Virus record (IMG/VR): IMGVR_UViG_3300033463_000081
Location: 14,375 to 78,374 of that record
Length of the DNA: 64,000 nt
Source: a virus
Taxonomy: Duplodnaviria > Caudoviricetes
Strand: one strand, 5' to 3'
Shown here: positions 24,071 to 47,824 of the stretch, one piece after another
How positions within the stretch are numbered: the first letter of the stretch is position 1
Layout of the letters: each line of letters begins with the position of its first letter
The notes under the pieces: generated by a model
Told to the model about the DNA's origin: nothing
What the model saw: the letters and a program-made list of their open reading frames with translations, nothing else
Database searches by the model: none
Position numbers and translations under genes: made by a program

Positions 24071-25699
24071 TTGCTTTATCAGCCCTCCAACATAACCCCC
24101 GATGAACTGAACGGCACGGGAACGGTGGACGTGACCGAGGACGTGGTGGTTTCGTGGATAGTCAACGGAACCACCCCCATGCGGGCTTACCAGATAACGT
24201 TCTATCAGAACAACGCCGCGTCCACTCAGGTATATACCACCGGGCAAGTACCGATTGCCCCATTTTGGGGAACAACATATGACGGCACAACAACGCCGTT
24301 CAGCGTCACACTGAGCGGACTCGCGTCCCACGGTCTTGCCAACGGGAACGAGTACAAGATGGTAATCACCCAATGGTGGTCACAAAACCAATATGTATCC
24401 CAAGTCACGGCGTCCATCATCGTGGCGAGAGCCAATCCCGTGGTGACTTTGGGTTCTTATGATGACCCTCTGACAGACAAGGAAGCCACGTTCACGGCGT
24501 CCTACTATCAAGCACAGGGAGACGGCATCAAGTGGGTGCGCTGGCAGATAGCCTACGCAGACGATACCGCCAATCCCTTCGTGGACACGGGATATATCTA
24601 CGGCACAGGCCAACTTCAAGTGGGCTATGACGGATTCCTCACGGACAACACCTACGCCGTCAAATGCACGGTGGAATCGCAGAACGGAGTTCAGGGTACT
24701 ACCGGGTGGGTGGACTTTGATGTGTCCTATACCCTCGCGGCGGCGGCGGGCGGAGCTACAGCCTGTCAGCTTGCGAACTCCTCCTCCGTGTGGGTCAGCT
24801 GGGATATGGTGCAGTCGGCGGACGGCTACTCCATCATGCGTCAGACGGTGGGAGAGAACCGCCTCATCAAGATAGCGGACGTGGAAGCCACAACGGGTCA
24901 GCTTCGTGACTACTCCGCACGGTCGGGCCAGACCTACATCTACTACGTCTTCCCAGAAGGTGCTTTGGCGTATCTGACCGAACCCATGATGACAGACCCC
25001 GTGAAAGTCCAATACTGGTATTGGAGCATCGTAGAGGCGGAGCCTGTGGAGGGAGAGAAGAACACCTACTCCGTCATCGCCGCCTACTACTTCAGATACA
25101 ACGCATCCGAGGGTCAGTTCTCCAATAACAACAACCCTCAGATATCTCAGAACTTCACACGGTATCCGACACGCCAAGGCTCCACCGCGAACTACAAGAC
25201 GGGTACTTTGGCGGGATATATCGGAACAATAGACCGCACGTCCGTGGAATATTCCGACACCATCTCCCAAAGCGAAGCTCTGTTCGCCCTATCCAATACG
25301 GAGAACGCCCTGTTCCTGCTCGACCCCAAGGGTCACTTCATGAGGATACACACGGCGGCGGCTACCACGCTACAGATAGACCACAAGAGCAGAGTTATGC
25401 CTCAGACGGTGACGGTATCGTGGGTGGAGACGGGCAGTACGGACGGAATACACCTCATCATGTACCCCGGCGGAGACTTTTACCCCATCGACCGCGTGAT
25501 ACTGACCACGCTCAGAGTCGATACGTCCACGGGAAAGCTGATATGGACTACCCCCAACGATTACGAGGGTACAGGCTCGGCTTTGTCGGTGAACGCCAAC
25601 GGCGTTCTCGTGCAGAACACAAGCGGTTCGTACAACGCCGCCACCATGACGCTCGACAGCGCCACGGGCATCGTAACAGCCACGCTTCCCGACTCGTAA
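24071..25699 (+). CDS. Tail/baseplate protein with FnIII-like beta domains
   Basis: Beta-rich composition; synteny; TTG start after GAGGTG. Confidence 0.55.
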   Translation: MLYQPSNITPDELNGTGTVDVTEDVVVSWIVNGTTPMRAYQITFYQNNAASTQVYTTGQVPIAPFWGTTYDGTTTPFSVTLSGLASHGLANGNEYKMVITQWWSQNQYVSQVTASIIVARANPVVTLGSYDDPLTDKEATFTASYYQAQGDGIKWVRWQIAYADDTANPFVDTGYIYGTGQLQVGYDGFLTDNTYAVKCTVESQNGVQGTTGWVDFDVSYTLAAAAGGATACQLANSSSVWVSWDMVQSADGYSIMRQTVGENRLIKIADVEATTGQLRDYSARSGQTYIYYVFPEGALAYLTEPMMTDPVKVQYWYWSIVEAEPVEGEKNTYSVIAAYYFRYNASEGQFSNNNNPQISQNFTRYPTRQGSTANYKTGTLAGYIGTIDRTSVEYSDTISQSEALFALSNTENALFLLDPKGHFMRIHTAAATTLQIDHKSRVMPQTVTVSWVETGSTDGIHLIMYPGGDFYPIDRVILTTLRVDTSTGKLIWTTPNDYEGTGSALSVNANGVLVQNTSGSYNAATMTLDSATGIVTATLPDS

Positions 25700-25711
25700 G
25701 GGGGCGATGAA

Positions 25712-27019
25712 TTGTCAGATTATCAGAAATATCTCACGCAACTACGCGGGGAATTTACCAAGATAGCACGGCTTGAGTTCCTCAACCCTGACGGCACGGT
25801 GGCGTATGTCCTCGACAACAACGCCACCAACCGAAGGTCTGGAGCGTTTCTCCAGTCGGGAACCATCTCCTGCAACAGACAGAACGGCAAGCGCCGCCAA
25901 GCATCCGTGACCCTCGTGAATCTCGACAGTGAGTACGAATACGCCGTCAACCACATTTGGTTTGGACAGCAGATACGATTGTCAGAGGGAATCATACTCG
26001 ATGACGGAACGGAGTATTACATCCCCCAAGGCGTATTTGAGATAGAGAATCCGCAGGAGGCATTGAAGCCTAGTCAGAACACCGTGACCTACAACCTCGT
26101 GGACAAGTGGGCGAACCTTGACGGTACGCTCTTCGGAAACCTTGAGGACGTGTACGAGGTGCAGGCGGGAACCAACATCTTCTCAGCCATAGCCGCCCTC
26201 CTACGCCTCGACAAATACACGATGGAGAACAGCGGGACGCACCCGGTTGACCCCATCGCTCCCCTGTTCACGGACTACTACAATGACAAGTCCCAGACGC
26301 TGACGGACGGCACGGTGGTATCGCTCATAGAAGCGCCCTACGATTTCCTATCCGAAAGCGAGGGGACTATGGCTGATGTAGTCCTCGGACTCAATGAGAT
26401 GATAGCCGGGGACATAGGCTACAACCAAGTCGGACGGCTCGTCATCAATCCCTCTCAGGACGATATCCTCGACAACGATAAGCCTATCCTGTGGCAGTTC
26501 GAGGAAGGGGACAAGACATTCCTCAATATCGAATCTTCACCCAAACCCACGAACGTATACAACGACGTTATCGTGGTGGGAGCCACATCGGACACCAACG
26601 AGACGGCAAAGGGCAGAGCGCAGAACAGAGACCCGTCCTCGTCCACCTGCATCAGCCGTATCGGTCTGAAGACCATTCGCATCCCCATGCCGAACTACTA
26701 CTCAGACCAGATGTGTCAGGACTACGCAGAGTGGCAACTGAAGAGATACTCGGTACTGTCCAAAGAGGTCACGATATCCTGCACACAGATGTTCCACATA
26801 GTCGAGAACGAACTCATCACGCTACAGAGACCAGACAAGCCCGGAAACCCGGCGGAACGGCATCTCGTCACGGGCTTTTCCCGACCGATAGGACAGACGG
26901 GAGCCATGACCATCAACTGCGTGTCGGTCAATGACATACCGCTGACTCTGATGCCGAGTACACAGACGGTCGTGTATTTCCTCTCCGATGAGATTTACGC
27001 TGCTGAAGCATACGCATAA
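25712..27019 (+). CDS. Tail hub/baseplate protein (DUF5048-like)
   Basis: WFGQQIRLSEGI...YYIPQGVF and VYNDVIVVG motifs; synteny. Confidence 0.55.
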   Translation: MSDYQKYLTQLRGEFTKIARLEFLNPDGTVAYVLDNNATNRRSGAFLQSGTISCNRQNGKRRQASVTLVNLDSEYEYAVNHIWFGQQIRLSEGIILDDGTEYYIPQGVFEIENPQEALKPSQNTVTYNLVDKWANLDGTLFGNLEDVYEVQAGTNIFSAIAALLRLDKYTMENSGTHPVDPIAPLFTDYYNDKSQTLTDGTVVSLIEAPYDFLSESEGTMADVVLGLNEMIAGDIGYNQVGRLVINPSQDDILDNDKPILWQFEEGDKTFLNIESSPKPTNVYNDVIVVGATSDTNETAKGRAQNRDPSSSTCISRIGLKTIRIPMPNYYSDQMCQDYAEWQLKRYSVLSKEVTISCTQMFHIVENELITLQRPDKPGNPAERHLVTGFSRPIGQTGAMTINCVSVNDIPLTLMPSTQTVVYFLSDEIYAAEAYA

Positions 27020-27033
27020 AAGGGGGAAAAATT

Positions 27034-27588
27034 ATGATAGATTCCGTTATCGCGGGAACCGGCAACAGCCGATACCTGCGAACAAGCATCTCCGCAAGCA
27101 CGACATGGGAAGACGCCCTGACGATGCTTCGTGCAGGCACGTTTCCCATCGACCTCGCGGGGATAAACCTCGCTGGGTTCACCACGCTCGGCACGGCACT
27201 GAACTCCGATACTCTGCTGAAAAGCGCCGTCATCACAGCACTTGGATTGGATGCAGACGCTACTCCCAGCGACGCATGGGAAGCAATCATCGAAATGATA
27301 GAGAACATGAGTACGATGACTGCTTCAATCACGCTATCCTCCGCATCATGGAGCGGAAGCAACCCATACGCTCAGACCGTGACCATATCAGGCTACACGG
27401 TGACGGCAAACACGAGGGTGGACATCACCTGCAACTACTCCACAATAAACTCGCTGGCGCAGGACGGTGTGAGTGCCATCTACGCAGAGAACAACAGTGG
27501 GACAATCACAGTATATGCGGTCGGTGCGGCCCCAACGTCTAACATTACCGTAACGGCCACGATATATGAGACCAAAGCGGTAAGTTAA
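27034..27588 (+). CDS. Tail fibre-associated beta-sandwich protein
   Basis: C-terminal domain paralogous to 27609-27968. Confidence 0.55.
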   Translation: MIDSVIAGTGNSRYLRTSISASTTWEDALTMLRAGTFPIDLAGINLAGFTTLGTALNSDTLLKSAVITALGLDADATPSDAWEAIIEMIENMSTMTASITLSSASWSGSNPYAQTVTISGYTVTANTRVDITCNYSTINSLAQDGVSAIYAENNSGTITVYAVGAAPTSNITVTATIYETKAVS

Positions 27589-27608
27589 AAGGACGGTGAT
27601 GACAACAT

Positions 27609-27968
27609 ATGGCTTACACTAAGGACATTTCCCTTATCACGCTCCTGATGGCGAAGAACTATACGGAGAGATATGTCGAAGACCATCAGGGCATAGCGGC
27701 ATCCGCAAAGGTAGGAACGCTGACAATAGGAACCACATGGAGCGGAACCGACCCGTTTACGCAGAGCGTGACCACATCGTACACCACTACTGATAAGACG
27801 GTCGTGGACATTCAGCCAGACCCAACCATCGTAGAACAACTGGTCAAAGACGGCGTATCCCAAATCATCATCAAGAATGACAACGGTGCGCTGACCGCCT
27901 ACGCATTCGGCGCAAAGCCAAGCACATCCCTTACAATATCTGTACTTTATTCGGAGGTGACTACTTAA
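27609..27968 (+). CDS. Tail fibre-associated beta-sandwich protein (paralog)
   Basis: WSGTDPFTQSVT...DGVSQI..NDNG.LTAYA.GAKP mirrors the previous gene. Confidence 0.55.
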   Translation: MAYTKDISLITLLMAKNYTERYVEDHQGIAASAKVGTLTIGTTWSGTDPFTQSVTTSYTTTDKTVVDIQPDPTIVEQLVKDGVSQIIIKNDNGALTAYAFGAKPSTSLTISVLYSEVTT

Positions 27969-27969
27969 T

Positions 27970-30012
27970 ATGTCTACTTTTGGCAACCCCATTGTAGCAA
28001 GCCCCAACCTGCTGCCGTCTATGGCTGATGTGTTCTCTACATCGACGGCGTACAGTGCGGGTCAATATGTATATTACGGCGGTAAACTGTACCAGTTCAC
28101 GGCCAATCACGCAGCTGGTGCGTGGGTAGGAACGGACGCCACGGCGGTCAAGCTGGCGAACGACGTAAGTAACTTAAAGAGCGCAATTAGTGACCTTGAC
28201 ACCGCAGTAGACAACCTTGAGGCCACTAAAGCAGACAAAGGCTCCGATGACCCCGAAGCGGCGGTCGGCACGGCTGAACAGGTCATGTCCGATGCGGGAG
28301 TGACCGACAAGGTGCCGTATCTGTTCCGCAAGTCGGCGGGTGACGGTGCGAACCGTGAGCGGGATTCCATTGTCGGCGGCACGGTGGCGTGGAATCAGCT
28401 TCTGCAAAAAAGCACCTTCTCTTATACGGGCGGTGATTGCACAACGGACGCAGACGGGGTTGCGACCTTTACTGCTTCTGCGAGTGGGCAACAGGCATAC
28501 AGAAGTGTTACATGTTACGCAACCCATGTGATACTTGTATCCATTACCTTCAAAACAACTACAGCATCGAGCTACGTTAGGATGAGGGCGTTCGCCAACG
28601 ATGTTGCTAGTATCGCAACGACATCTTGGCAGACTGGTTATTCCATGTATAAACCACCCAATAGCGGGAACCAAACTGTTGGCGTGATTGACCGCCGAGA
28701 AAGCGGGTGGGATGCAATAACCATCGACCCGCCAATGGTGTTTGACCTCACCCAAATGTTTGGCTCCACCATAGCCGACTACATCTACACGCTTGAATCG
28801 ACCGAAGCGGGTGCGGGAGTGGCCCTGTTCCGTTCCCTGTTCCCCGCCCCGTACTACGCCTACAACACAGGAGAACTGAAGTCCGTCACGGGTCTGTCGG
28901 CTCATGTCATGCGTGGGTTTAACCAGTGGGATGGTGAGTATGAAAAGGCCACAATCAACTGGACAACATACATCTTCACTCCCAACGCATCGGGGAGATG
29001 GTCGTCGAAGAATTATATCCCTGTAATTCCCGACACCGCATATTATATCACCCATACGTCCAATAATGTTGTCTGCGGCTATACCGACAATCAAGGCAAC
29101 GGTGGCAGGGCGTTGACCGTAAGCTCCCATCTTTTCACCGTTCCGTCCGATGTGCATTTCATCAAATTCGGCATCAATGAAACCGCACAGCCGACAGACG
29201 TTTGCATCAACATCTCCAACGCCGCTTTGAACGGCACATACGAACCCTATGACGGTCACAGCTACCCGCTTGACTCCGACCTTACTCTCCGTGGTATCCC
29301 CAAACTGGACGCAAGCAATAACCTGTACTATGACGGCGACACCTATGCCGCTGACGGTACGGTGACAAGGAAGTATGCCATTGTTGATTTGGGGAGTTTG
29401 AGTTGGTCAACCACTTCTTCAGGGAATCATTATGCGGGAATAGATAACCCACAAAAACTTGGAAATGCCGTGATTGCACACGCTGTATGCGGGAGGTATG
29501 TTGCGTCATCTCCAAGCGGATATGGGTCTATTGACAAGGCGTTTGCGATAGGAATGAATGGAACCAACAGCGTGTACATTCATGACAGCACATATGATAA
29601 TGTCGATGCCGCCACATTCAAAACCGCAATGAGTGGTGTGTACCTTGTCTACGAACTCGCAACCCCGACAACCGAATCCGCTGACCCGTACAACCCCATT
29701 CAGATTGTAGACCCCAACGGAACGGAAGAATACGTTTCCACAGGCATCGTTCCTGTCGGGCACGATACGTTCTACCCCGAAAATGTGGCGGCGAAGATTG
29801 CGGGTCTACCTTGGAACTTTGCGAATCTGATTGCCTACACCGAATCGGGATTCACTGCAAGCAAAGCCTATTCCGCAAACGATTTCCTTATCATCAACAA
29901 TCAGCTTTACAAGGCCACAACGTCCATCGCAAACGGTGCGACTATCACCGTAGGAACGAACGTCACGGCAACAACCATCGGTGAGCAAATCACCGCAATC
30001 CTTAATTCTTAA
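27970..30012 (+). CDS. Tail fibre/receptor-binding protein
   Basis: N- and C-terminal CBM5/12-like repeats (FSTSTAYSAGQYVYYGGKLY; ASKAYSANDFLIINNQLYKA). Confidence 0.7.
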   Translation: MSTFGNPIVASPNLLPSMADVFSTSTAYSAGQYVYYGGKLYQFTANHAAGAWVGTDATAVKLANDVSNLKSAISDLDTAVDNLEATKADKGSDDPEAAVGTAEQVMSDAGVTDKVPYLFRKSAGDGANRERDSIVGGTVAWNQLLQKSTFSYTGGDCTTDADGVATFTASASGQQAYRSVTCYATHVILVSITFKTTTASSYVRMRAFANDVASIATTSWQTGYSMYKPPNSGNQTVGVIDRRESGWDAITIDPPMVFDLTQMFGSTIADYIYTLESTEAGAGVALFRSLFPAPYYAYNTGELKSVTGLSAHVMRGFNQWDGEYEKATINWTTYIFTPNASGRWSSKNYIPVIPDTAYYITHTSNNVVCGYTDNQGNGGRALTVSSHLFTVPSDVHFIKFGINETAQPTDVCINISNAALNGTYEPYDGHSYPLDSDLTLRGIPKLDASNNLYYDGDTYAADGTVTRKYAIVDLGSLSWSTTSSGNHYAGIDNPQKLGNAVIAHAVCGRYVASSPSGYGSIDKAFAIGMNGTNSVYIHDSTYDNVDAATFKTAMSGVYLVYELATPTTESADPYNPIQIVDPNGTEEYVSTGIVPVGHDTFYPENVAAKIAGLPWNFANLIAYTESGFTASKAYSANDFLIINNQLYKATTSIANGATITVGTNVTATTIGEQITAILNS

Positions 30013-30031
30013 TTTTACGGAGGGTTAAACA

Positions 30032-30286
30032 ATGAAACTTGCCATTATCGAGTGCGTAAACGGGAACTATGTTGTGCGGGCCGAGGGCATCGCTTCTGTC
30101 GAAGCCGCCAAGACGCAGTACCACGGGAGAGCGCAGGCTCTTTGGAACGCTCCCGATGTGCTGACCGCCTACATCGCCATTGTCGATGAGCAGTTGGATG
30201 TGGTCGAGGGCATGAAAGAGTACATCCATCATGACCCGACTCCTGCTCCCGAACCCGAAGAGGAAGAGCCTGTCGAGGGAGAGTAA
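30032..30286 (+). CDS. Fibre-associated small protein
   Basis: GGAGG RBS; follows the fibre gene. Confidence 0.6.
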   Translation: MKLAIIECVNGNYVVRAEGIASVEAAKTQYHGRAQALWNAPDVLTAYIAIVDEQLDVVEGMKEYIHHDPTPAPEPEEEEPVEGE

Positions 30287-30474
30287 TGGACTACACCGAA
30301 CTGGTGCAGGAATTGCGGGGCAACAATTCCCCGCTTACCGACAAGGCCGCTGACGCAATCGAAGAACTGATTGCTGACCTTGAACGTGCGGAAGACTATG
30401 CCGAAGCATGGGAAGGGCTTGCCAACGATTGCAAGGAAAAGTTTGTGGCGTTTGTCGAGAAGATGAAGCGGTAA
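30286..30474 (+). CDS. Hypothetical, AADAIEEL family
   Basis: TAATG overlap; MDYTELV...AADAIEEL resembles 41742-42074. Confidence 0.55.
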   Translation: MDYTELVQELRGNNSPLTDKAADAIEELIADLERAEDYAEAWEGLANDCKEKFVAFVEKMKR

Positions 30475-30777
30475 CGATTTGGCATGATAGTAAAACAGAT
30501 TTCATGCTATCTATACGGAATCACGCATAAACACTTTCGGAATTTCTTTATAGAAAAAGGGAAGTGTTGCGGGCTTGGATTCGCAGTATGTGACGGGTGC
30601 AGATTCAAGCGCAAGTAACGATTCGGCCCATATTAGTGACCATCCATACGCATACATACACACTTGTTTAATAGCGGTCTGACAAGTGTTTCCCCACGAT
30701 TCGGGGAGTGACCGAGTGCTGACCGCTAAGTTGAACTCGTCATTGGGCGTGACGAGGGTAATATAAATAAAGCCCAT

Positions 30778-30814
30778 AAGAAGAGAGGGACTACCCTCAA
30801 TAGTCCCTCTTCTT
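30778..30814 (-). terminator. Terminator overlapping RHH-1 stop
   Basis: GAGGGACTA/TAGTCCCTC hairpin followed by a pyrimidine run on the minus strand. Confidence 0.65.
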
Positions 30815-30994
30815 CAGAAACTCATCAACAGCCCTCTGAATCACCCATGACCTTGGACGATCCTCTTCCTTGCAGAACTTGTCCAGTCGGGTGAGGATAC
30901 TGGGCGGCATCGTGATATTGAGCCGCAGGAAAAGACCCTCATCTTCCTTGCTGACCTCAATGCCACGGAGCGACCTACCTCCGTTGATTCCCAT
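30797..30994 (-). CDS. Ribbon-helix-helix (CopG-like) protein 1
   Basis: RLNITMPPSILTRLDKFCKEEDRPRSWVIQRAVDEFL; AGGAGGT RBS. Confidence 0.8.
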   Translation of the reverse strand: MGINGGRSLRGIEVSKEDEGLFLRLNITMPPSILTRLDKFCKEEDRPRSWVIQRAVDEFLKKRDY

Positions 30995-31050
30995 ACAGAC
31001 ACCTCCTTATTGATAGATTAACATCCATGTCAATGGAGATGTATGCGGAC

Positions 31051-31071
31051 TCAACTTTACGAGGCCCAAAT
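31051..31071. repeat. Conserved site copy 1 (TCAACTTT-AC-GAGGCCCAAAT)
   Basis: 19/21 identical to 31756-31776. Confidence 0.75.
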
Positions 31072-31103
31072 TAATAACCACTGACTTACACTGGTGTACA
31101 CCG

Positions 31104-31430
31104 ATGGAGAAGAGCAACATGGCAGAGTACGTCAACCGTGAAGAAATTCTTGCAGAGTATGACCGACAGCATCAAGGGCCTGCGGGCGGGGCAAGAAAGA
31201 TAATGGCAGAATGGCCCGCCGCTGACGTTGCTCCTGTTCATCACGGAAAGTGGATACCCGCAAAAACGAGATTTGCCTCATTGGGTGGTGACCCAGTATG
31301 GCAGTGTTCAGAGTGCGGTAAAGGCATCCACACTTACGGAATCGAACACGCATTATACAACGCCAACATCGCAGACGGACAATGGAAATACTGCCCCAAT
31401 TGCGGCGCAAAGATGGACGGTGAGAGGTGA
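31104..31430 (+). CDS. Zn-ribbon hypothetical protein common in Bacillota phages
   Basis: ADVAPVHHGKWI...CSECG...YCPNCGAKMD. Confidence 0.7.
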   Translation: MEKSNMAEYVNREEILAEYDRQHQGPAGGARKIMAEWPAADVAPVHHGKWIPAKTRFASLGGDPVWQCSECGKGIHTYGIEHALYNANIADGQWKYCPNCGAKMDGER

Positions 31431-31467
31431 TGCTCAGTGTACCCGGACTCGTTCCCCGTATGTGAGT

Positions 31468-31504
31468 AGAAGAGAGGGGCTACCCCTCAGTAACCCCTCT
31501 TCTT
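31468..31504 (-). terminator. Terminator overlapping RHH-2 stop
   Basis: Same layout as 30778-30814 with compensatory changes. Confidence 0.65.
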
Positions 31505-31678
31505 CAACCATTCATCAAGCGCACGTTGGATAACCCACGAGCGGTTGCGATCTTCCTCTTTCATGAATCTCTCCAATCGCTCACGGATGGAATTAGGCAA
31601 AGAGATATGCAAATCGGTAAACCCCGACATATCTTCGATGCCCCTCAGATTGCGGCCTCCATTGATGCCCATCGGCAA
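31487..31678 (-). CDS. Ribbon-helix-helix (CopG-like) protein 2
   Basis: LHISLPNSIRERLERFMKEEDRNRSWVIQRALDEWL; paralog of RHH-1; likely start ATG 31672. Confidence 0.8.
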   Translation of the reverse strand: MPMGINGGRNLRGIEDMSGFTDLHISLPNSIRERLERFMKEEDRNRSWVIQRALDEWLKKRGY

Positions 31679-31718
31679 ACACCTCCTACCACTATTGTAC
31701 GGCGGCTGTCAATGAGTG

Positions 31719-31754
31719 CCAGTGATAGCCAGTGAAATCCAGTGATAGCCAGTA
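31719..31754. repeat. 10-bp tandem repeats CCAGTGA(T/A)A(G/T)
   Basis: CCAGTGATAG CCAGTGAAAT CCAGTGATAG CCAGTA. Confidence 0.8.
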
Positions 31755-31755
31755 T

Positions 31756-31776
31756 TCAACTTTGAGAGGCCCAAAT
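31756..31776. repeat. Conserved site copy 2 (TCAACTTT-GA-GAGGCCCAAAT)
   Basis: See copy 1. Confidence 0.75.
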
Positions 31777-31811
31777 AAATTACTTGTGTTCAACCGAAAG
31801 GGGAGCTTTTT

Positions 31812-32309
31812 ATGGGTAATGATGAGAAGAAAATCGAATCTGTAAAGCTCCCCTCCGGCTGTGTTGGGCTGTGGGAGACTCCGACTATCGGAACAAAATC
31901 CTACCTGTACACGTCACCGGCAAACACGATGGCGCAGAACCAAAAGGTCGTAGACCGAGAGAACTGCGCACTGTGGTGGCCATATGGGAAAGGTCACGCC
32001 GTCTGCGACCATGCGGACTCTGTTCTCCCCGGAGGGCTGTGGCGTGTTCAGGATATAACCGTAGAGGACAACGCCACGCTCACACTCCCAGACGGAACGA
32101 GGAAATACTACACCTGCATGGGCCTGCTCAGATGCAGACGGAGACCTCGTGACTACGCATGGAACAATGCGCCCTTCGCCCCAGTCGCAAAGGAAGACGT
32201 GGTGTGCATCTGCTGTGCCAACAACAGCGGCAGTGAAGTGTATGTCGCCTATTTCAAACACAATTTCACAATAAAATCAAGCTCAACCATTGAGAGTATA
32301 AAAAAATAA
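31812..32309 (+). CDS. Hypothetical, possibly sortase-like fold
   Basis: AVCDHAD and VVCICC motifs spaced like the sortase His/Cys; GAAAGGGGAG RBS. Confidence 0.4.
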   Translation: MGNDEKKIESVKLPSGCVGLWETPTIGTKSYLYTSPANTMAQNQKVVDRENCALWWPYGKGHAVCDHADSVLPGGLWRVQDITVEDNATLTLPDGTRKYYTCMGLLRCRRRPRDYAWNNAPFAPVAKEDVVCICCANNSGSEVYVAYFKHNFTIKSSSTIESIKK

Positions 32310-32330
32310 GGGGAGGGTTCCCCCTCCCCT
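32309..32330 (-). terminator. Terminator of the recombinase gene
   Basis: AGGGGAGGG/CCCTCCCCT stem followed by a T run on the minus strand. Confidence 0.75.
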
Positions 32331-32331
32331 C

Positions 32332-33318
32332 TCACGCATACTTACGATAGGCGTTGCGCACGTTCTCCTTGCTTTGGTAGACGTATTCCATTGTGGTGTC
32401 CAGCTTGTCATGGCCGAGTACCGCCGCTACGTCCTGAATGGGCATACCGTTGTTGATGAGGTTCGTGGCCAACGTCCGGCGGAACTTATGCGGATGGACG
32501 CGCTCTACCCCGGACTCCGCGCCTAGCTGTCTGAGCATCCTTCGGACTCCACCGGGTTGTATACGCGCATCGGAACGGTTGATGAACAGCGCCTCGCAAT
32601 CGTCTTTTCTCTTATTCAGATAGCGTTCCAGCATCATGGCGGTCACGCCGTCGAAGAACACCACGCGCTCCTTGTTGCCTTTGCCTCGGACTTTGCATTC
32701 AAAGTTCACAAGGTCGAGGTCGGAGCGGTTGAGGGAACACGCCTCGGAGATGCGGCATCCAGTAGCCAAAAGAAAGAAGATGATAGCCTTGTCTCTCGGA
32801 TTACGGCATTTCTCTTTCAGCTTTTCTATTTCCGTATCGGAATACGGGGTCTTCACCTTCTTGGCGCATTTGATGGGTGCGAGATTAGCGCACGGATTAT
32901 CTTTGAGCAGGCCCTCTTTCTGACACCATCCGAAGAAAGAACAGTATACGCTCCTGTTCCCTTCCAATGTGGAGTCTGCAATCCCGCGCTCTTTCTCCTT
33001 GCCGAGATAAGAGCGGATGTGGAACACGGTGATTTCCCTTACGGGGACATTGAGAGCGGAGAACAATCTTCTTAGCGTGTAGACAGACCTCGTGATGCTC
33101 TTTTCCGAGCATCCCTGCAATCTCTTCGTATCGCAGTATATGTCGAGCATTTCCTGCGCATCATTTGAGCCTGACTCGTTGGGGTGTTCCTCAACGGCAT
33201 ATGAGGACAGGTTCGCGGAGAGGATATCAAGTACGGAGTTGATATCTTTCTCCAATAAAAAAGTCTTTAATTGTCTCTCTGTTTCTTTCAGCAATCGCTG
33301 TTTGGCAGTTACAGACAT
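32332..33318 (-). CDS. XerC/D-like tyrosine recombinase
   Basis: GCRISE, KGNK, HKFRR and LGHDKLDTTMEY catalytic motifs. Confidence 0.92.
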   Translation of the reverse strand: MSVTAKQRLLKETERQLKTFLLEKDINSVLDILSANLSSYAVEEHPNESGSNDAQEMLDIYCDTKRLQGCSEKSITRSVYTLRRLFSALNVPVREITVFHIRSYLGKEKERGIADSTLEGNRSVYCSFFGWCQKEGLLKDNPCANLAPIKCAKKVKTPYSDTEIEKLKEKCRNPRDKAIIFFLLATGCRISEACSLNRSDLDLVNFECKVRGKGNKERVVFFDGVTAMMLERYLNKRKDDCEALFINRSDARIQPGGVRRMLRQLGAESGVERVHPHKFRRTLATNLINNGMPIQDVAAVLGHDKLDTTMEYVYQSKENVRNAYRKYA

Positions 33319-33363
33319 TTTTCATACAACCTCCAATCTTAGTATTAGGAAAGGACAGACAAC

Positions 33364-33849
33364 ATGGCATCTTATGAACTCGGACAAGTCGCAATCGTGA
33401 ATAAAGGTGCATGGAGCAGTGCCACAAGCTATGTTCTGCTCAATACGGTGACGCACAACGGTGGCTCGTTCATGTGTATCTCCGCCAACACCAACAAGGA
33501 ACCGGGCGTGGCTTCGGGATGGGCTACTTACTGGGTAAACATGGCGAAGGGCATTAAGACCGTGAGCATCGTGGCTGATTCCACATCGACCGCTCATGCG
33601 GTGTTCACCATGTCGGACGGCATGACCATTACGGGAACCACGTTCACCACATCTCCCGTGGCTGCTGGCTCCATCACGGATACGGAGATAACAAGCAACG
33701 GCATCTCACGCATAGCCAACGGAGCGGTGACGGCGGCGAAGCTCGGCTCGGACATCCTGCCTGCCAACGTGGGCATCAAGCATGGAAACCACAATCCTCC
33801 GACCACATCGGACATCTCTGACGGACAGATATATCTGTACCACGCATAA
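33364..33849 (+). CDS. Minor tail/fibre protein
   Basis: KGAWSSATSY...VTHNGGSFMC CBM-like repeat; AGGAAAGG RBS. Confidence 0.55.
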   Translation: MASYELGQVAIVNKGAWSSATSYVLLNTVTHNGGSFMCISANTNKEPGVASGWATYWVNMAKGIKTVSIVADSTSTAHAVFTMSDGMTITGTTFTTSPVAAGSITDTEITSNGISRIANGAVTAAKLGSDILPANVGIKHGNHNPPTTSDISDGQIYLYHA

Positions 33850-33862
33850 GGTGGTGTAGCTC

Positions 33863-34855
33863 ATGGGATGGCAGACTAACGACCCAGGCGGCTCGTATTC
33901 GTCCGTAGCCAGTATCACAAAAGCCATGAACAAATACACCGTGGTCATCACGGTGAGCATGGCGCGGCTTACGAACAACGGCATTGCGTTCAAGTTCGTG
34001 CAGACCACATCCAAAGGCTCCTCCTCCACATACAAGCCCCCGGACTATATGGATTTCCGCGTGGGGAGCGACACCCGTTCTGAGAACTGGGGAACCGGCG
34101 GCGGAGAGCGGTACTATGTGAAAAACTTGACGCTCTACTGGAGGGGTACACTCAACAAGAACTCGACCGTGAACGTGAAAGTGGGCGCTCACGATGCGGG
34201 AGACTCGGCGTTTGACCACGCTGTATACATCAACAAGGATGTGACAGGCCCGGACTACACATCCAAATACTCGCTGACTTTTAACGGCAACGGGAACAAC
34301 AGTGGTTCCACAAGTTCCTTCAACGATAAGACCTACGGCACTGAGATAATTATGCCCGAATGTGGGTATACAAAGACGGGCTACAACTTTGTAGGGTGGA
34401 ACACAAACCAATCAGCAACAACGGCGCAGTATCAGCCCGGAGATTCCTATACCATCACAGCGAATGTCACGTTCTACGCCATATGGTCACAGATAACCTA
34501 TACCGTCAGCTACAACGGCAACGGAGCGGACAGCGGAACAACAGAAGAACAGACGAAATACTGGGGCACACCCCTTACCCTTCAGAGCAACGGCTATACC
34601 AAAGCCAACTACACGTTCCAACACTGGAACACGGCGGCGGACGACAGCGGAACGTCCTACGCCGCAGGCGCATCGTACATAGACAACGCCGCCGTAACGC
34701 TCTACGCCATATGGAAGAAAAACAATATCCCCGTGTTCATCAGAAGCGGCAACGCCATCATCCAAGTGGAAAAGGCGTTCATAAATGTCGGCGGAACGAT
34801 AAAGGAATGCACCGTGTATCAGAATCTCGGTGGGAATATCATCGTTTACCAGTAA
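33863..34855 (+). CDS. Protein with two InlB B-repeats (Listeria-Bacteroides repeat)
   Basis: YSLTFNGNG...GYNFVGWNT...FYAIW and YTVSYNGNG...YTFQHWNT...LYAIW. Confidence 0.8.
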   Translation: MGWQTNDPGGSYSSVASITKAMNKYTVVITVSMARLTNNGIAFKFVQTTSKGSSSTYKPPDYMDFRVGSDTRSENWGTGGGERYYVKNLTLYWRGTLNKNSTVNVKVGAHDAGDSAFDHAVYINKDVTGPDYTSKYSLTFNGNGNNSGSTSSFNDKTYGTEIIMPECGYTKTGYNFVGWNTNQSATTAQYQPGDSYTITANVTFYAIWSQITYTVSYNGNGADSGTTEEQTKYWGTPLTLQSNGYTKANYTFQHWNTAADDSGTSYAAGASYIDNAAVTLYAIWKKNNIPVFIRSGNAIIQVEKAFINVGGTIKECTVYQNLGGNIIVYQ

Positions 34856-34866
34856 GGGGTGAGTGA

Positions 34867-35742
34867 ATGCTCAATGTAATCGACATATCCTCGTGGCAGA
34901 CGGGCATGAACCTCGACACGATGTATAAGCGGAACCCGGATTTGAACGGAGTCATCGTCAAGGTGACGCAAGGCACGTCCTATGTGAATCCCCCCGCAAA
35001 GGAATGGCTCGAATGGCTGATGTCCAAGAACAAGCCTTTCGGCGTGTATCATTTCCTTGACCTCTACGGAGGCGTGGCTGAAGCACAGCACTTCGTCAAC
35101 ACCATCCAGCCGTATATCGGCAAGGGAATCCTCGTCATAGACTACGAGGGCAACGCCGTCCGCAAGGGCGCAGGCTACCTCAAAGAATGTCTCGATGAGG
35201 TCTATCGGCTGACCAACGTCAAGCCGTTCGTCTACTGCTCACAGAGCATCACGCAGACCAACGGATTTGACAAGATAGCGGCGGCGGGATATCCGCTGTG
35301 GATGGCGCAGTACGCAGATTACAACCCCGTACACGGATTCTTGGAGAAGCCGTGGCAGAAAGGCTCGGTCAAACCGTTCGACAAATACTGGATGCACCAA
35401 TATACTTCCTGCGGATATCTGAACGGATGGGATGGGCGTCTGGACTTCGACCTCTTCTATGGAACGGAACTGGACTGGCGCAAGCTGGCGTACAGTGACA
35501 TCGAACCCGACGTTCCCGTTACGCCACTGAAGAAAGCCGACCCAAGCATATGCCTGCGTGTACTCAAGAACGAGTTTGGAGTTGGCACGGACAGAATCAT
35601 ACGCCTGCGTGAAGAGGGCTACGACCCAACCGATGTGCAGAAGACGCTGAACAGGCTGTTCATAGAGGCGAAGAACGCAAGAACCGCCATAGGCGATGAC
35701 ATGAGCTACCTGAACTCTATCCTTTGGATAATGAAATCTTAA
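34867..35742 (+). CDS. GH25 muramidase endolysin with CW_7-like C-terminus
   Basis: VIDISSWQ, VKVTQG, GVYHF, VIDYE, LWMAQY, HQYTS, LDFD; tail GEFGVGTDRI.RL-like (NEFGVGTDRIIRLREEGYDP). Confidence 0.9.
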   Translation: MLNVIDISSWQTGMNLDTMYKRNPDLNGVIVKVTQGTSYVNPPAKEWLEWLMSKNKPFGVYHFLDLYGGVAEAQHFVNTIQPYIGKGILVIDYEGNAVRKGAGYLKECLDEVYRLTNVKPFVYCSQSITQTNGFDKIAAAGYPLWMAQYADYNPVHGFLEKPWQKGSVKPFDKYWMHQYTSCGYLNGWDGRLDFDLFYGTELDWRKLAYSDIEPDVPVTPLKKADPSICLRVLKNEFGVGTDRIIRLREEGYDPTDVQKTLNRLFIEAKNARTAIGDDMSYLNSILWIMKS

Positions 35743-35758
35743 TGAGGAGGAATCATAT

Positions 35759-36040
35759 ATGGCATACGAAATCAAATCCGTATCTTATCCCGCCCTGAAG
35801 CCAATCATGGAAATCGAGGCGGACGCACTGTCCGATATCGAATCCCTTACAGGCATGGCGGAGGGAAGCACCTGCAAGGTCAGTTCCACAACCTATGTCT
35901 ACGATGAGGTCAACGGCTGGGCCGAAGCGGGAACTCAGGGTCAGGAACTCCCCGCGTTCCCTGAAGAGAACGGCAACTACCACCTCAAATGCGCCGTCAC
36001 CAACGATGGAGCAACGCTCAGTTGGGTGGCTCTCACCTAA
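35759..36040 (+). CDS. Hypothetical virion-associated protein
   Basis: GAGGAGG RBS; last plus-strand gene before the terminator. Confidence 0.6.
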   Translation: MAYEIKSVSYPALKPIMEIEADALSDIESLTGMAEGSTCKVSSTTYVYDEVNGWAEAGTQGQELPAFPEENGNYHLKCAVTNDGATLSWVALT

Positions 36041-36057
36041 ACACCAAAACACAAAGA

Positions 36058-36101
36058 ATGCCGTCAGACGCAACAGAATGCGTTCTGACGGCATTTTCTT
36101 T
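36058..36101. terminator. Likely bidirectional terminator at the convergence of late and early arms
   Basis: ATGCCGTCAGA...TCTGACGGCAT stem then TTTCTTTT. Confidence 0.75.
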
Positions 36102-36112
36102 TCGGAGTATAG

Positions 36113-37129
36113 TTATTGCGTAAGTTGACGAAGTTGCGCCACAGCCCGTCTGAGGGCGTCTGCAACGTAATCGTAGTCTTCCTTGGGAGTTTCGGGGCAG
36201 AAAGACAGACGGATGGTGGAGAGAGCCTGCTCCACGGTAAGCCCGGACGCAAGCAGAACGGGGGACGGTGCGTCAGAATCGGAGGAGCAGGCCGCGCCTG
36301 CCGAAGCGTACACGCCGAGGGCGTCAAGGGCAACGAGCAGTTCACGGGCGTTCACGCCATCGAATCGGACGGACAGAATACTGTGCACGGCATGGATGGG
36401 CGTGTTGATATGCGCCCCCTCAATCTCCATGATGGAATGACCGAGACCGTACAGACGCTCCGCCATTCTGTCACCGTCTTCGTACATATACTCCGTTCTG
36501 TACACGAGGGCGTCCGCCATAGCACTGACAAGAGCCACGGGCGGAGTGCCGGGGAACGTATCGTCATCGGATATCCCTCCCTTCATATAGAGAAATCCGA
36601 TGCCGGGGTATCCCCCGAACTTGTGCGCTCCTGCGGCGAGGGCTTCCACGCCCAGCTCTTTGACGTTCACGGGAATCTGACCGACAGCGGCGGTGGCGTC
36701 CGTGAAGACACGGTTGTGAGTGGAATCCTTTTTCACCTCGTAATCATACCGTTCCCCGGTCTCGTTGTTGACGAGCATGTGGGCAACGGCATTCCCGTCC
36801 ACAACGCCGAACGAACGGATAGACTCCACGGAGTCACGGACAGCCTTATGCTCGTAGGGCGAACACCATCCGATGTTCATGACGTTGACGGCGAAACGGC
36901 AGGCGGCTGTGGCGGACGGCGTGAACGCTATCTCCGTGGGAAAATCAGCGCCGATACACTCGGCGATATCCGCACGGGCTTTCTCCAACAAACTCCTTGC
37001 CACACGCCCATACTGGTGCGTACCGTTGGGGTTGGCGAGGAGGCCGTGCATATTGGTTTCCGCTATGGGAAGCACGGGGGCGGAGGCGGCGCAGTCGGCG
37101 TAGACTCTCCGCCATTCCATATCAGACAT
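36113..37129 (-). CDS. iscS: Cysteine desulfurase (IscS/NifS group I, shortened)
   Basis: YADCAASAP, EHKAV, VNNETG, DATAAVGQ, PLP lysine AHK, catalytic GAACSS, IRLSF; GAGGAG RBS fits ATG 37129. Confidence 0.9.
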   Translation of the reverse strand: MSDMEWRRVYADCAASAPVLPIAETNMHGLLANPNGTHQYGRVARSLLEKARADIAECIGADFPTEIAFTPSATAACRFAVNVMNIGWCSPYEHKAVRDSVESIRSFGVVDGNAVAHMLVNNETGERYDYEVKKDSTHNRVFTDATAAVGQIPVNVKELGVEALAAGAHKFGGYPGIGFLYMKGGISDDDTFPGTPPVALVSAMADALVYRTEYMYEDGDRMAERLYGLGHSIMEIEGAHINTPIHAVHSILSVRFDGVNARELLVALDALGVYASAGAACSSDSDAPSPVLLASGLTVEQALSTIRLSFCPETPKEDYDYVADALRRAVAQLRQLTQ

Positions 37130-37436
37130 CGGCAATCTCCTCCTCAAACATTTCTATGGCGATGTGCGCCTTTCGTTGGTATCTGTGCTGTGCTTCGGAT
37201 ATCTTCTTATTCCGACAGTTATAACAGCATGTGGAGCGGCCCGACTTGAGGTTGCTCCCTATCACAATGTCCTCCGCACCGCAGTCGCAACGGCAGTGCC
37301 AACGTGGGGTGCTGTGCGAGACTATCATGCCGTTGCGGAAGTCCACGGACGTACTGGTGTAGTCGGCGTAGGAGCGGCCCAAGACCGTCCACGAACCGAA
37401 TCTTTTCCCGGTCAGGTCAAGGGCGTGTCTGCCCAT
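37122..37436 (-). CDS. AP2/HNH-associated small DNA-binding domain protein
   Basis: DLTGKRFGSWTVL...WHCRCDCG...NLKSGRSTCC signature; no HNH nuclease part visible. Confidence 0.7.
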   Translation of the reverse strand: MGRHALDLTGKRFGSWTVLGRSYADYTSTSVDFRNGMIVSHSTPRWHCRCDCGAEDIVIGSNLKSGRSTCCYNCRNKKISEAQHRYQRKAHIAIEMFEEEIADV

Positions 37437-37792
37437 CAGAAGAACTCCTCGTCCGAGAATCGGTAGCCGTCTATGTTTTTGACCCGATAGTTGAAGTTGT
37501 CCGGGTTGTCCCGCGTTTCGGGGTCGTTCTGCTTGGTTTCCACGAGGTCTACGAAAACATCGTAGGGGATGATTTCATCGTACTCGTCCATGATGACGAA
37601 CTCCGTGGAATCGACCGTGTGATTCTTGAGCCACGTCTTCACCTGCGGCCATGTGTGCCATGTTACTGGCGGCTCAGACCATGTGTCGGACTGCTCCTGA
37701 AAGTGGAACAGCCAGCCGACAGAACTCTTCCCGATATGATGGGGAGATTCCGTGGTGGGTCTGTTCCGCACGGCGTAGTAGTTAGTTCCCAT
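37436..37792 (-). CDS. Hypothetical protein
   Basis: HIGKSSVGWLFHF pattern; coupled to neighbours. Confidence 0.6.
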   Translation of the reverse strand: MGTNYYAVRNRPTTESPHHIGKSSVGWLFHFQEQSDTWSEPPVTWHTWPQVKTWLKNHTVDSTEFVIMDEYDEIIPYDVFVDLVETKQNDPETRDNPDNFNYRVKNIDGYRFSDEEFF

Positions 37793-43839: not shown

Positions 43840-44154
43840 TCAATCAGCCACCGCATCGGATTCCCCCTTCTTCATCATGCCGTTGGCACGGTTCCTGTAC
43901 TTCTGCGGCAGGTCAAGCACCGTGATGAGGATGTAGTCCTCGGAGAAGACCCACACCTTTTCGCTCCAGACCCGGATGATGACCGGGCGTGAGTTGCGGT
44001 GCGAAACGTAGTCGAGGTAGCGGCGCAGACCGCCGTGGGTATCGTCACGGGCTATTCCGTTGTCCAACGCTTTCCTTGCCAACTTCTGTACGGCGCTTCG
44101 GTTGACGCCCACACGCTTCCGTGCGCGTTTGTCACCGTGGCGTGTGATTATCAT
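43840..44154 (-). CDS. Possible RelE/BrnT-like fold protein
   Basis: MIITRHGDKRARKR...WVFS...LITVL pattern. Confidence 0.4.
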   Translation of the reverse strand: MIITRHGDKRARKRVGVNRSAVQKLARKALDNGIARDDTHGGLRRYLDYVSHRNSRPVIIRVWSEKVWVFSEDYILITVLDLPQKYRNRANGMMKKGESDAVAD

Positions 44155-44696
44155 GAATCACCCACCGCCTTGTTGATGCGGTCGGCAAGGGCTTGCAGTT
44201 CCGCCAACTTTTCCAGCGGCTTGTACCATACTGCATCGTCATTGTCCCATGCCCATACATCGCCCTCGTGAAGCTCTCCGTACAGACCGTCACAGTCCAT
44301 ACCGCACCATAATTTAATCCACCGCACAAACCGCTCGGCTTTCTTACCGTCGAGTATTTTCATGTACATGATGGATTCTTCCCACTGTTCCGCGGTGGGT
44401 TTCTCTATGAAATTCAGGTTATCGTCAAAGGCGGCGACAGCGCCCATGTTTCTGTAGCATTCGTCCTCATAGGCAATGCAATCCGCCTCATTGTCGAACT
44501 CCGTTTCGTCAAAGGCGTAATATGTTTTCTCAACTCTCATGGCATCTTCTCCCCTCTTATCTCGGAATTTGTGTGTCCTGTTCTCTATGCACCACGGACA
44601 ACTGCCGTGGTTTCTGCATGTGCAGTCTATGGCTTTCGCCCCACGGTAGGGCTTGCGCTTCTCCTTGCCATGCTCTATGGCTTTGTCAAGGCTCAT
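44151..44696 (-). CDS. Hypothetical protein
   Basis: CRNHGSCPWC N-terminal module joined to an acidic module. Confidence 0.55.
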   Translation of the reverse strand: MSLDKAIEHGKEKRKPYRGAKAIDCTCRNHGSCPWCIENRTHKFRDKRGEDAMRVEKTYYAFDETEFDNEADCIAYEDECYRNMGAVAAFDDNLNFIEKPTAEQWEESIMYMKILDGKKAERFVRWIKLWCGMDCDGLYGELHEGDVWAWDNDDAVWYKPLEKLAELQALADRINKAVGDS

Positions 44697-45031
44697 TTGG
44701 CATACCTCTCATCCGTATATGGATAGAGCGGCTGTCCGCAAAACGGGCAGAATGCCCAGTTCTCCTGCCCTCGGCATTCGTCATCATCACTGAACAGAAA
44801 AGCGCCACAGATTGAACACGCATAGCTCTGCACGTTGTTGATGACGAGTACGATTTCAAGCATCACGCCGCCCTCCTTTCATTTGTCCAACTCTTCCAGC
44901 TTTGCAAGGATGAGACAAGCCGTTGTCAGTTCTACCGCGTGTCTCGCACCGCTGATATCGCCCTTGATAAGCAACACAGTCGCAAAGATGAGTTCCGCCA
45001 CCGCCCAAATCGTGTACCATGTCTTCATCAT

Positions 45032-45241
45032 TTACGCCGCCCTCCTGTTCCACTTGGCAATCGCTCCCGCCGGGTCATGGCTCCAGTTGATGTAGCATCC
45101 ACAGGGAACGCACCCGACCCATCCGTGGCGGAACATTCCCCGGAACTCTCTGACCTCAGACTTTCCGCCACAGTGCGGGCAGTTTTCTACATGTTCTCCG
45201 ACGAGAACGAACGATGTGTCCTGTTTCTTTTTCTTGGACAT
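45032..45241 (-). CDS. Lar-family restriction alleviation protein
   Basis: CPHCGG...VGCVPCG...AIAKWNRR; start overlaps the recombinase stop. Confidence 0.7.
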   Translation of the reverse strand: MSKKKKQDTSFVLVGEHVENCPHCGGKSEVREFRGMFRHGWVGCVPCGCYINWSHDPAGAIAKWNRRAA

Positions 45242-46179: not shown

Positions 46180-46206
46180 CTTCTCGATGCCTCCTTTCTT
46201 CGTCAC

Positions 46207-46238
46207 TTAATAGTGAATAACAAGCCCAAAATATCAGA
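46207..46238 (-). promoter_or_regulatory. Phage early motif copy 1
   Basis: TCTGATATTT-TGGGCTTGTT-ATTCACTATTAA. Confidence 0.75.
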
Positions 46239-47109: not shown

Positions 47110-47159
47110 CGTCCTTTGGCGGCATATAATAACATCCCGTGTCAAGTGGATTTGGGCAT

Positions 47160-47191: not shown

Positions 47192-47212
47192 CGATGATTG
47201 TTGTGTGGATTT

Positions 47213-47809: not shown

Positions 47810-47824
47810 CTCCCCTTTTATATA

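Follow-up and report, generated by a model that had tools for sequence, protein, structure and literature searches.

A Probable Tandem Pair of Ribbon-Helix-Helix Repressor Morons between the Tail and Lysis Genes of a Rumen Clostridia Phage

Introduction

Between the tail-fibre and the lysis genes of a phage of rumen Clostridia (IMG/VR virus record IMGVR_UViG_3300033463_000081, 78,374 bp, rated complete) lie, one behind the other, two short units that each carry a minus-strand gene for a ribbon-helix-helix (RHH) protein and end in a conserved 21-mer. A tyrosine recombinase, here called int328, is encoded nearby. In the present work, we examine what these units are. The window that was analysed comprises bases 14375-78374 of the record (64,000 nucleotides); all coordinates below are those of the window, and L-numbers (L004-L162) are labels of related loci used for comparison.

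Judged by sequence comparison, the units are probably a tandem pair of autoregulated RHH-repressor morons, similar to the immunity I (immI) region or 'ant moron' of phage P22, and not an integron. We read them in this way because their layout matches that of the P22 region. An initial annotation had seen here an integron-like recombinase system that captures cargo genes at the 21-mer, and had named a mini mobile element and a repressor role of the RHH protein as alternatives. As described below, the capture reading does not stand, and the two alternatives come close to the data.

Anatomy of the two units

The two diverged units of about 300 bp were confirmed with the annotated order of hairpin terminator, RHH gene, control region and 21-mer (Table 1). 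The two proteins, RHH1 and RHH2, are paralogues with 65% identity, and both lie above the gathering score of the Pfam RHH_1 family (28.6 and 23.9 bits, respectively, against 20.5). RHH1, for which 172 homologues were found, also matches an Arc-like repressor in PHROG with an E value of 1.7e-5. The residue triad of the beta-strand is R/N/T in RHH1 and D/H/S in RHH2, and the closest relatives of RHH2 are found in L153 (97% amino acid and 94% nucleotide identity), L156, L149, L159 and L160. Because the family N-terminus MGINGG is conserved, RHH2 more probably starts at the ATG than at the TTG given in the list of open reading frames (ORFs).

The terminator hairpins are strong. That of unit 1 has folding energies of -20.8 kcal/mol on the plus strand and -23.1 kcal/mol on the minus strand (z scores of -4.6 and -3.2), and a consensus scan scored it as a terminator on the minus strand only; for unit 2 the values are -22.4 and -27.8 kcal/mol (z -4.4 and -5.5).

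Promoter-like TTGACA/TACAAT elements are likewise conserved in the units. The TTGACA of RHH1 sits within a short palindrome, CCAT..ATGG, and the GATG/GCGGAC words of its control region are subtype-specific, recurring in the RHH1-type units of L025, L026 and L028. In front of RHH2, a promoter scan of the minus strand gave a promoter-like site at 31722-31694. The sequence CAGTGATAGC/CAGTGAAATC, 10 bp long, is repeated three times over 31720-31749, inside the repeat family D1 (31710-31749). Similar 10-bp repeats are present in the RHH2-type units of L153, L156 and L159, with other words in other subfamilies, and the repeats are likely the RHH2 operator, for which they are the candidate.

A portable cassette family

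Searches with the RHH proteins gave 21, and later 45, IMG/VR loci, plus metagenome contigs. The counts given below refer to 41 non-redundant units for the conserved box and to about 50 units (L118-L162, L025-L028 and the window) for the hairpins. The relatives come almost all from rumen viromes, and the Atlas clusters that match RHH1 are 100% viral. In 185k reference genomes the family was found at only 3 loci (rumen Clostridiales and Eubacteriales metagenome-assembled genomes), at which attP was not located and the prophage junction was unreadable.

The anatomy seen in the window is that of the whole family. In every unit the gene closes with a hairpin, and its final codons (K-K-R/K-G-Y, stop) form the 5' arm. 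Going upstream from the gene, one meets a ribosome binding site (RBS), then TTGACA within short repeats or a TCAATG..CATTGA palindrome, and then the box. The repeats or palindrome that flank TTGACA differ between RHH subtypes.

Units that are 96-99% identical to each other are found in unrelated flanks, with homology running from about -129/-150 to +33/+35 around the gene. Because near-identical units sit in unrelated contexts, we take the RHH cassette to be the conserved moving part. At 82-83% identity, counterparts of unit 1 (window 30774/30779 to 31064/31075) are present in L025, where a 141-aa gene, a 224-aa gene and then the scaffold and capsid genes follow, and in L026/L027, where the unit precedes genes for a glycosyltransferase, a holin and a lysin. 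The homology to unit 1 ends at 31064-31075 in these three loci and at 31054 in L028. The L153 unit, 94% identical to unit 2, aligns over 31497-31773 and diverges inside site 2; it heads a block with a GP20-b RNA motif, which in L025 is located ahead of the scaffold gene. The box of the L160 unit is followed, 14 nt further on, by the start of a tRNA gene. In different phages the cassettes thus precede head genes, lysis genes, an integrase or a tRNA, and the DNA that follows the box is whatever was already there. L010, L011 and L150 likewise carry two or three RHH units in tandem, in some cases separated by a forward gene.

Beside the L026 unit, and convergent with it, a 500-aa protein with reverse-transcriptase and CBM_5_12 matches is encoded at L026:4786-6288 (minus strand). 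It adjoins tail and lysis genes and is possibly part of a diversity-generating retroelement.

The end-box

The 21-mer TCAACTTTNNGAGGCCCAAAT is present at both units on the plus strand with 19 of 21 positions shared, as had been annotated, and the likeness extends to 24 of 28. In an alignment of the units it forms an island of identity within control regions that are otherwise unalignable. No further copy with up to three mismatches was found in the window (0.02 expected; none of 100 shuffles gave two), and none with up to two mismatches in the whole 78,374-bp genome. The exact 21-mer had no match in IMG/VR.

The picture changes when the family is considered. The 21-mer covers positions -2 to +18 of an end-box of about 27 nt, AACTTTG-N8-CWWTAAnTCA, which is found at a fixed place in all 41 non-redundant units. 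Its second half is independently conserved (T in 38, A in 35 and A in 36 of the 41), and the information content is zero directly beyond it. In 244 kb of related loci the strict pattern gave 29 matches, every one of which lies a short way 5' of an RHH gene, always in the same orientation. The box is constant across the beta-strand subtypes of the RHH proteins, while the repeats at the RHH promoter vary with subtype.

Because it is family-wide and subtype-independent, the box is best seen as a functional part of the RHH cassette and not as a site private to int328. Its constancy across RHH recognition strands also means that it is probably not a subtype-specific operator. It lies 19-72 nt beyond the promoter/operator elements, and this variable distance disfavours an upstream activator site of the RHH promoter and fits an independent forward-facing element. 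Our leading guess, tentative as it is, is that the box is a forward promoter/operator. It is possible, with somewhat less weight, that it is an outer operator or another part of the RHH control, and quite improbable that it is a recombination site; a small share is left for some other role. Alternatively, the invariant G/R-rich N-terminal arm of the protein may touch the invariant A/T-rich box.

Several other candidates were considered. A general late promoter of the phage was rejected, since there is no other intergenic CAACTTT context, and a target of a phage sigma factor was rejected, since no Sigma70_r2 or r4_2 domain is encoded in the genome. To our knowledge, the box does not convincingly fit the sigma-A, extracytoplasmic function (AAC..TCA), sigma-D, sigma-54, T4 MotA-type, boxA, LexA or IHF patterns. 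The initial annotation had listed a weaker site-like sequence at 32283. This stretch is within the coding sequence of cargo 2 and is kept as coding in L028, and it is not a site because the invariant AACTTT core is missing. A stretch at 30612-30640 agrees with site 1 at about 19 of 27 positions in a hand alignment with a 2-nt gap; it also lacks the AACTTT core, and we therefore do not count it as a site, or at most as a relic of one.

On the other side of the units, within 160 nt past the RHH terminator, there is a mild enrichment of CTTTAA, which is present in 10 of 50 flanks but in only 8% of random windows. In several of these flanks the sequence is GGTCACTTTAAGT, i.e. the second half-box in inverse orientation. 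This may be due to chance, or it may hint at a second end element.

Comparison with close relatives

Comparison with related phages had been set beforehand as a check, and it shows that the content of the locus is not fixed: the units are accessory DNA inserted in the tail-to-lysis operon, as had been proposed, and relatives differ in their presence and number. In the window, the plus-strand order past the fibre gene is two small genes, an ORF-less stretch, the two units and the 165-aa gene called cargo 2. Downstream come the minus-strand int328, a fibre-like 161-aa gene (g161), a 330-aa protein with Listeria-Bacteroides repeats (g330) and a GH25-type endolysin.

L028 has an RHH gene (88% identical to RHH1) and a box, directly followed by homologues of cargo 2 (80% amino acid identity) and of g161 (88%) and by the repeat protein. 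It is without window bases 31055-31799 (cargo 1 and unit 2) and 32330-33348 (int328 and its leader). L034 is a close relative, with a lysin 97.6% identical and about 95% nucleotide identity over window 44035-47280. Its order is the upstream gene, a short spacer, the cargo 2 homologue (69%) and the same downstream genes, and no RHH gene, box or int328 homologue is found anywhere in its 35.9 kb. At the same locus there are thus two units in the window, one in L028 and none in L034.

The linkage of cargo 2 to g161, g330 and the lysin in both L028 and L034 identifies it as a resident late gene. The same comparison separates two accessory stretches, one consisting of the two units with cargo 1 and the other of the integrase. 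The initial annotation was thus right that a plus-strand ORF follows each site, and wrong in taking cargo 2 for a captured one. Cargo 2 gave no usable match in PDB, Pfam, PHROG or the Atlas.

Cargo 1, which may instead start at 31119, where the RBS is better, gave zinc-ribbon matches in Pfam that are all sub-threshold, a match to PHROG 22543 (unknown function, E 5e-6) and a weak Lar-like match (E 0.003). Its homologues, at 43-45% identity, are found in five phage contigs with no RHH gene of the family nearby. It is followed by a stub of 11 codons plus stop (not 13 codons, as first annotated). An overlapping stop and start with a downstream gene is likewise seen at the cargo 1 homologues in L029-L031, but no homologue or parent gene of the stub was found among the neighbours of the cargo 1 homologues. 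The joint between the stub and the terminator (31465/31468) is the novel junction between the units, and no site is present there. Because the stub is truncated and the joint site-less, the joining of cargo 1 to the hairpin of unit 2 appears to be an illegitimate event and not one that took place at a site.

Table 1. Positions of the features discussed in the text (window coordinates).
Feature	Position	Strand	Remarks
Tail fibre gene, 680 aa	27970-30012	+	End of the tail genes, 5' of the units
Two small genes	30032-30474	+	
ORF-less stretch, ~300 bp			Between the two small genes and unit 1
6A-like small RNA motif (Rfam RF02925)	30732-30782	+	Directly 5' of the unit 1 hairpin
Unit 1 hairpin terminator	30780-30815		On the minus strand, the final RHH1 codons (KKRDY, stop) form its 5' arm
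RHH1	30797-30994	-	65-aa CopG/Arc-type ribbon-helix-helix; N-terminal arm MGINGGRSLRG invariant
RHH1 control region	30995-31050	-	RBS; promoter-like TTGACA 31028-31033; GATG/GCGGAC words
Site 1	31051-31077	+	21-mer 31051-31071 plus 6 nt; AACTTT core 31053-31058, A/T box ~31069-31077
Cargo 1	31104-31430	+	108-aa zinc-ribbon-like protein
Stub	31430-31465	+	Its ATG and the stop of cargo 1 overlap; 3' end 2 nt short of the unit 2 hairpin
Unit 2 hairpin terminator	~31469-31505		Built on the last RHH2 codons (KKRGY, stop)
RHH2	31487-31678	-	Start TTG 31678 in the ORF list; probable true start ATG 31672
RHH2 control region	31679-31755	-	-10-like TACAAT, TTGACA, three 10-bp repeats
Site 2	31756-31782	+	21-mer 31756-31776 plus 6 nt; family end-box
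Cargo 2	31812-32309	+	165-aa protein
Hairpin common to the convergent cargo 2 and integrase genes	32309-32331		-18.7 kcal/mol, z -4.4
int328	32332-33318	-	SAM-like core-binding domain and catalytic domain
Second tyrosine recombinase	45241-46206	-	Phage_integrase 97.7 bits; 99% identical in the L034 phage

Proposed mechanism

If the units are repressor morons, the following scheme can be put forward. The cassette, of about 350 bp, consists of a terminator hairpin with one arm made of the last five codons, a gene for an RHH protein of 60-65 aa, operator-like repeats and, at its outer edge, the end-box. The RHH gene is oriented against the late operon and would be transcribed from its own promoter with its subtype-specific operator repeats, and each RHH protein would bind the repeats or palindrome at its own promoter, which would make it autoregulated. 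From this operator it may also gate whatever assembles on the end-box, which would most likely be a forward start or control site for the next gene (cargo 1 in the first case, cargo 2 onward in the second). Such gating would match the control of Pant by Mnt and Arc in P22 immI. During lytic growth, late transcription would read through the cassettes. The array itself would have been built by recombination between phages, including one illegitimate joint between stub and terminator, and not by site-specific capture.

It is important to point out that a number of observations weigh against this scheme. The geometry of the end-box does not, in our reading, fit the -35/-10 elements of sigma-A on either strand, and the promoter scan called no forward promoter at the box. 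The distance from the box to the next forward ORF ranges from 22 to 379 nt. In L028, an RBS and a start codon come directly after the first half-box, which leaves no room for a start site, and in L013, L014 and L018 the neighbouring genes are co-directional with the RHH gene, so that there is no forward gene to control. The similarity to Mnt and Arc is at the superfamily level only, and no antirepressor was found. The sharp and reproducible edges of the units in many contexts could suggest a dedicated mobility mechanism. Finally, what the comparisons show directly is the anatomy of the units, their membership of a family, their portability, their presence or absence in relatives and the restriction of the box to them; repression and promoter activity are things that we infer, as are the binder of the box and the spread of the cassette.

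Comparison with known systems

In P22-like phages, the ant moron beside the tailspike gene is a variable moron that holds the repressors Mnt and Arc and an antisense RNA (PMC2629481). In some of these phages it contains only mnt plus an unknown gene, and the immI region as a whole is variable, dispensable and in rapid flux (PMC2629481).

The locus studied here resembles immI in being a variable insert in the late operon beside a tail gene, with RHH repressor genes and a small RNA, and, as far as anatomy goes, in having an RHH gene divergent from the next forward gene with operator-like DNA between them. It differs in that there is no detectable sequence relation beyond the RHH fold (the PHROG Arc-like match quoted above), no Ant-like family among the Pfam and PHROG matches of cargo 1 and cargo 2, and a host among the Clostridia instead of the enterobacteria. 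The unit is also far more compact here, a stereotyped cassette of about 350 bp with its terminator in the coding end and a conserved end-box, which is found in at least 40 contexts, head genes among them, and in tandem arrays.

Morons usually carry genes that benefit the host. Like the morons of lambdoid and other tailed phages, the units are self-contained, are present or absent between genes that are adjacent elsewhere, and read against the operon. Unlike in usual morons, however, the payload is a putative DNA-binding repressor, and the same cassette is found at many sites with sharp ends. The RHH proteins themselves are similar to autorepressors of the CopG/Arc/Mnt/omega type, being small, with an RHH_1 domain and with tandem repeats of about 10 bp or a palindrome over their own promoter; they differ from these in the 22-aa N-terminal arm with its invariant G/R-rich motif, and in the extra DNA box at 19-72 nt from the operator.

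Shufflons and tail-fibre invertases (Rci, Gin/Cin) share with the present locus a recombinase embedded among tail-fibre genes. Here, on the other hand, the sites are direct repeats, no segment is surrounded by inverted repeats, and there are no alternative fibre C-termini. A search of 25500-37500 for inverted repeats gave no convincing pair, the best being 70-88% over 16-30 nt and scattered.

Linker DNA or a new class of mobile cassette

We now turn to the alternatives to the repressor-moron reading. In the first, the RHH cassettes would be mainly linker DNA, i.e. landing pads for homologous recombination by which modules are swapped, with regulation being secondary. The 60-99% nucleotide conservation beside hypervariable genes would then be the essential property, and the box simply the outermost stretch under constraint in the RHH promoter region. 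The promoter-side breakpoints vary (-129, -149, -234, -253) and thus resemble homologous exchange more than a fixed crossover. Further, the units lie directly 3' of tail-fibre genes in most loci, and different RHH subtypes are found at the same position (L025 versus L153; RHH1 in the window versus the RHH2-type in L156). However, the intact ORFs, the strong purifying conservation of the protein with its invariant N-terminal arm, the matched operators and the built-in terminator show that the gene is used and not only carried, and the explanation is an evolutionary one that is compatible with the regulatory one. We consider the linker reading unlikely.

Another option considered was that phages of rumen Clostridia carry a type of mobile regulatory cassette that has not been described before, which would spread by a dedicated mechanism at the end-box, carried out by a phage or host recombinase or by targeted gene conversion, and which would lock the late and lysis genes. 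The lock would act in the lysogen on the resident phage and possibly on incoming phages with the same box, as a late-stage heteroimmunity, with the N-terminal arm reading the box. We give this scenario only a small chance.

The int328 recombinase

The annotation of the neighbouring recombinase as a Xer-like tyrosine recombinase is borne out by the searches. The protein int328 matches Pfam Phage_integrase with 130 bits and, in PDB, XerC-like, XerA and XerD structures with E values of 1e-25 to 4e-20. Its catalytic set (R189, K213/K216, H277-x-x-R280, H303, Y312) is invariant in six homologues. Compared with L028 and L034, the gene together with a 30-nt leader (32330-33348) forms an exact single-gene indel with no flanking site; its edges are the shared hairpin on one side and the RBS of the next gene on the other. 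The hairpin is found also in L028, where the integrase is missing. In several relatives the integrase lies 3' of the tail-fibre genes and is co-directional with them, and in the window it is inverted.

An alignment-based scan gave 452 relatives of int328 in IMG/VR. Among the best 80 loci of this family (45-55% identity), seven have an RHH gene of the cassette family within 4 kb, and five of the seven are contigs that had already been retrieved via RHH. The second tyrosine recombinase of the phage is, because it is 99% identical in a close relative without int328, the conserved one of the lineage, with int328 as an extra. We conclude that int328 is an independently acquired gene of a large phage integrase family, with no shown link to the box.

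These data bear on two further explanations. In one of them, the RHH protein is a partner of the integrase, i.e. a directionality factor or a repressor of int/xis, and the box is the control point. L004, L009, L019 and L021 indeed have an RHH gene, the box, a small ORF and an int328 homologue that reads away from RHH, a layout that resembles repressor-int/xis modules, and in L013 the integrase and RHH genes are co-directional neighbours. In the window, however, the integrase has the wrong orientation and cargo 2 lies between it and the boxes; moreover, most RHH units are without a nearby integrase and most integrases without RHH, and we know of no excisionase that is an RHH protein. A partnership with the integrase is therefore very unlikely.

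The other is the capture system of the initial annotation, in which the recombinase would act on the 21-mer to capture, excise and reorder cassettes composed of site, cargo, terminator and RHH gene. Like an integron, the locus has a tyrosine recombinase beside short repeated sites that separate unrelated genes, and the two sites are direct and well-conserved copies. What distinguishes L028 from the window at the units is exactly the DNA from site 1 to site 2. The homology between units of different phages breaks in or just past the box, an int328 homologue is found within about 1 kb at 6 of 21 RHH loci, and site 2 has TTTG..CAAA half-sites with a 7-nt spacer, loosely of the core type.

A number of findings speak against it. 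Each unit has a single box at one end, and the opposite edge is a hairpin. The one real novel joint of the array is site-less, cargo 2 is resident in relatives without sites, and L028, as an 80-88% relative, is no recent deletion product. The recombinase is rarely linked to the units, as the counts above show; many RHH units are without such an integrase, and int328 itself is a clean indel. The sites also lack an attC-like single-strand hairpin: 61-nt windows on both strands gave DNA fold z scores of -1.06 to +0.93. In integrons, most cassettes are single genes that have no promoter and share one orientation, whereas the units here have a reverse gene, a promoter-like region of their own and a terminator. 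A relaxed 19-mer gave 64 matches in Joint Genome Institute (JGI) metagenomes, none near an RHH gene, a phage gene or any protein of the window, and these were set aside as chance matches. Taken together, integron-like capture is very unlikely.

It is also very unlikely that the RHH proteins act as orphan antitoxins, or as mimics of antitoxins with an anti-defence role, which would neutralise host toxins through binding by the N-terminal peptide: there is a weak HicB-like antitoxin match (E 3.6e-4, below the cut-off), an invariant arm, a phage-only family and an accessory hot spot, but there is no co-transcribed toxin gene, the neighbours being divergent or convergent and phage-dependent, and the RHH domain makes up nearly the whole protein, with only the 22-aa arm left.

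Neighbouring features

The region is an accessory-DNA hot spot between the tail-fibre genes and the block of cargo 2, g161, g330 and lysin, and across the phage group small RNAs, small genes, RHH cassettes and integrases all occupy it. A blastn search of 30000-33400 against GenBank phages gave no match.

The ORF-less stretch before unit 1 probably encodes a small RNA, because a near-threshold 6A motif is found there. The match covers the full-length model with 38.4 bits, just below the gathering score of 41.2 (E 9e-6). The stem covaries, and in the loop/3' pseudoknot the pair GGGC..GCCC replaces the consensus GAGC..GCUC. Folded with the following hairpin, the motif has a z score of -4.2. The main text of PMC5737381 makes no mention of it. 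The matching position in relatives is taken by a DUF3800-VIII RNA in L025 (L025:8387-8451, minus strand) and by a tRNA in L009 (L009:5557-5628, minus strand), both on the terminator side of the RHH unit. Other RNA elements beside the relatives' units are the tRNA past the box at L160:2826-2896 (minus strand) and, along the forward operon, the GP20-b motifs at L153:1731-1785 and L025:6741-6799 (both minus strand).

In the same part of the window, a 13-nt direct repeat, GTAACGATT(T/C)GGC, is present at 30471-30483 and 30615-30627. The 144 bp that the copies flank contain a 44-codon Cys-rich ORF without an RBS, and the second copy overlaps the site-1-like stretch at 30612-30640.

Further away, a class-V aminotransferase/cysteine-desulfurase-like protein is encoded at 36113-37147 (minus strand), and genes for tRNA-Gln(UUG) and tRNA-Ile(GAU) are located at 11569-11642 and 62820-62890 (both plus strand). 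A promoter-like motif, CTGATATTT-N10-ATTCACTATTAA, is present in ten copies ahead of minus-strand genes in 46207-60764 (minus strand); these early-type motifs were also considered as copies of the box and rejected, their sequence being different from that of the end-box.

Conclusions

The results mostly do away with a misleading idea: the tail operon contains no integron-like machinery for gene capture, and the pattern of a cargo gene beside a site is that of a repressor cassette dropped ahead of resident or stray genes. We read the cassettes as a new family within a known kind, namely morons that carry an RHH repressor; the loose end is the conserved end-box together with the sharp edges. In phages from rumen metagenomes, this compact, virus-only RHH cassette family is found in at least 40 contexts. 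If the box is a portable promoter/operator, the cassettes would be insulated, repressible expression units for Clostridia, and they would provide a handle on the silencing of late genes by temperate rumen phages.

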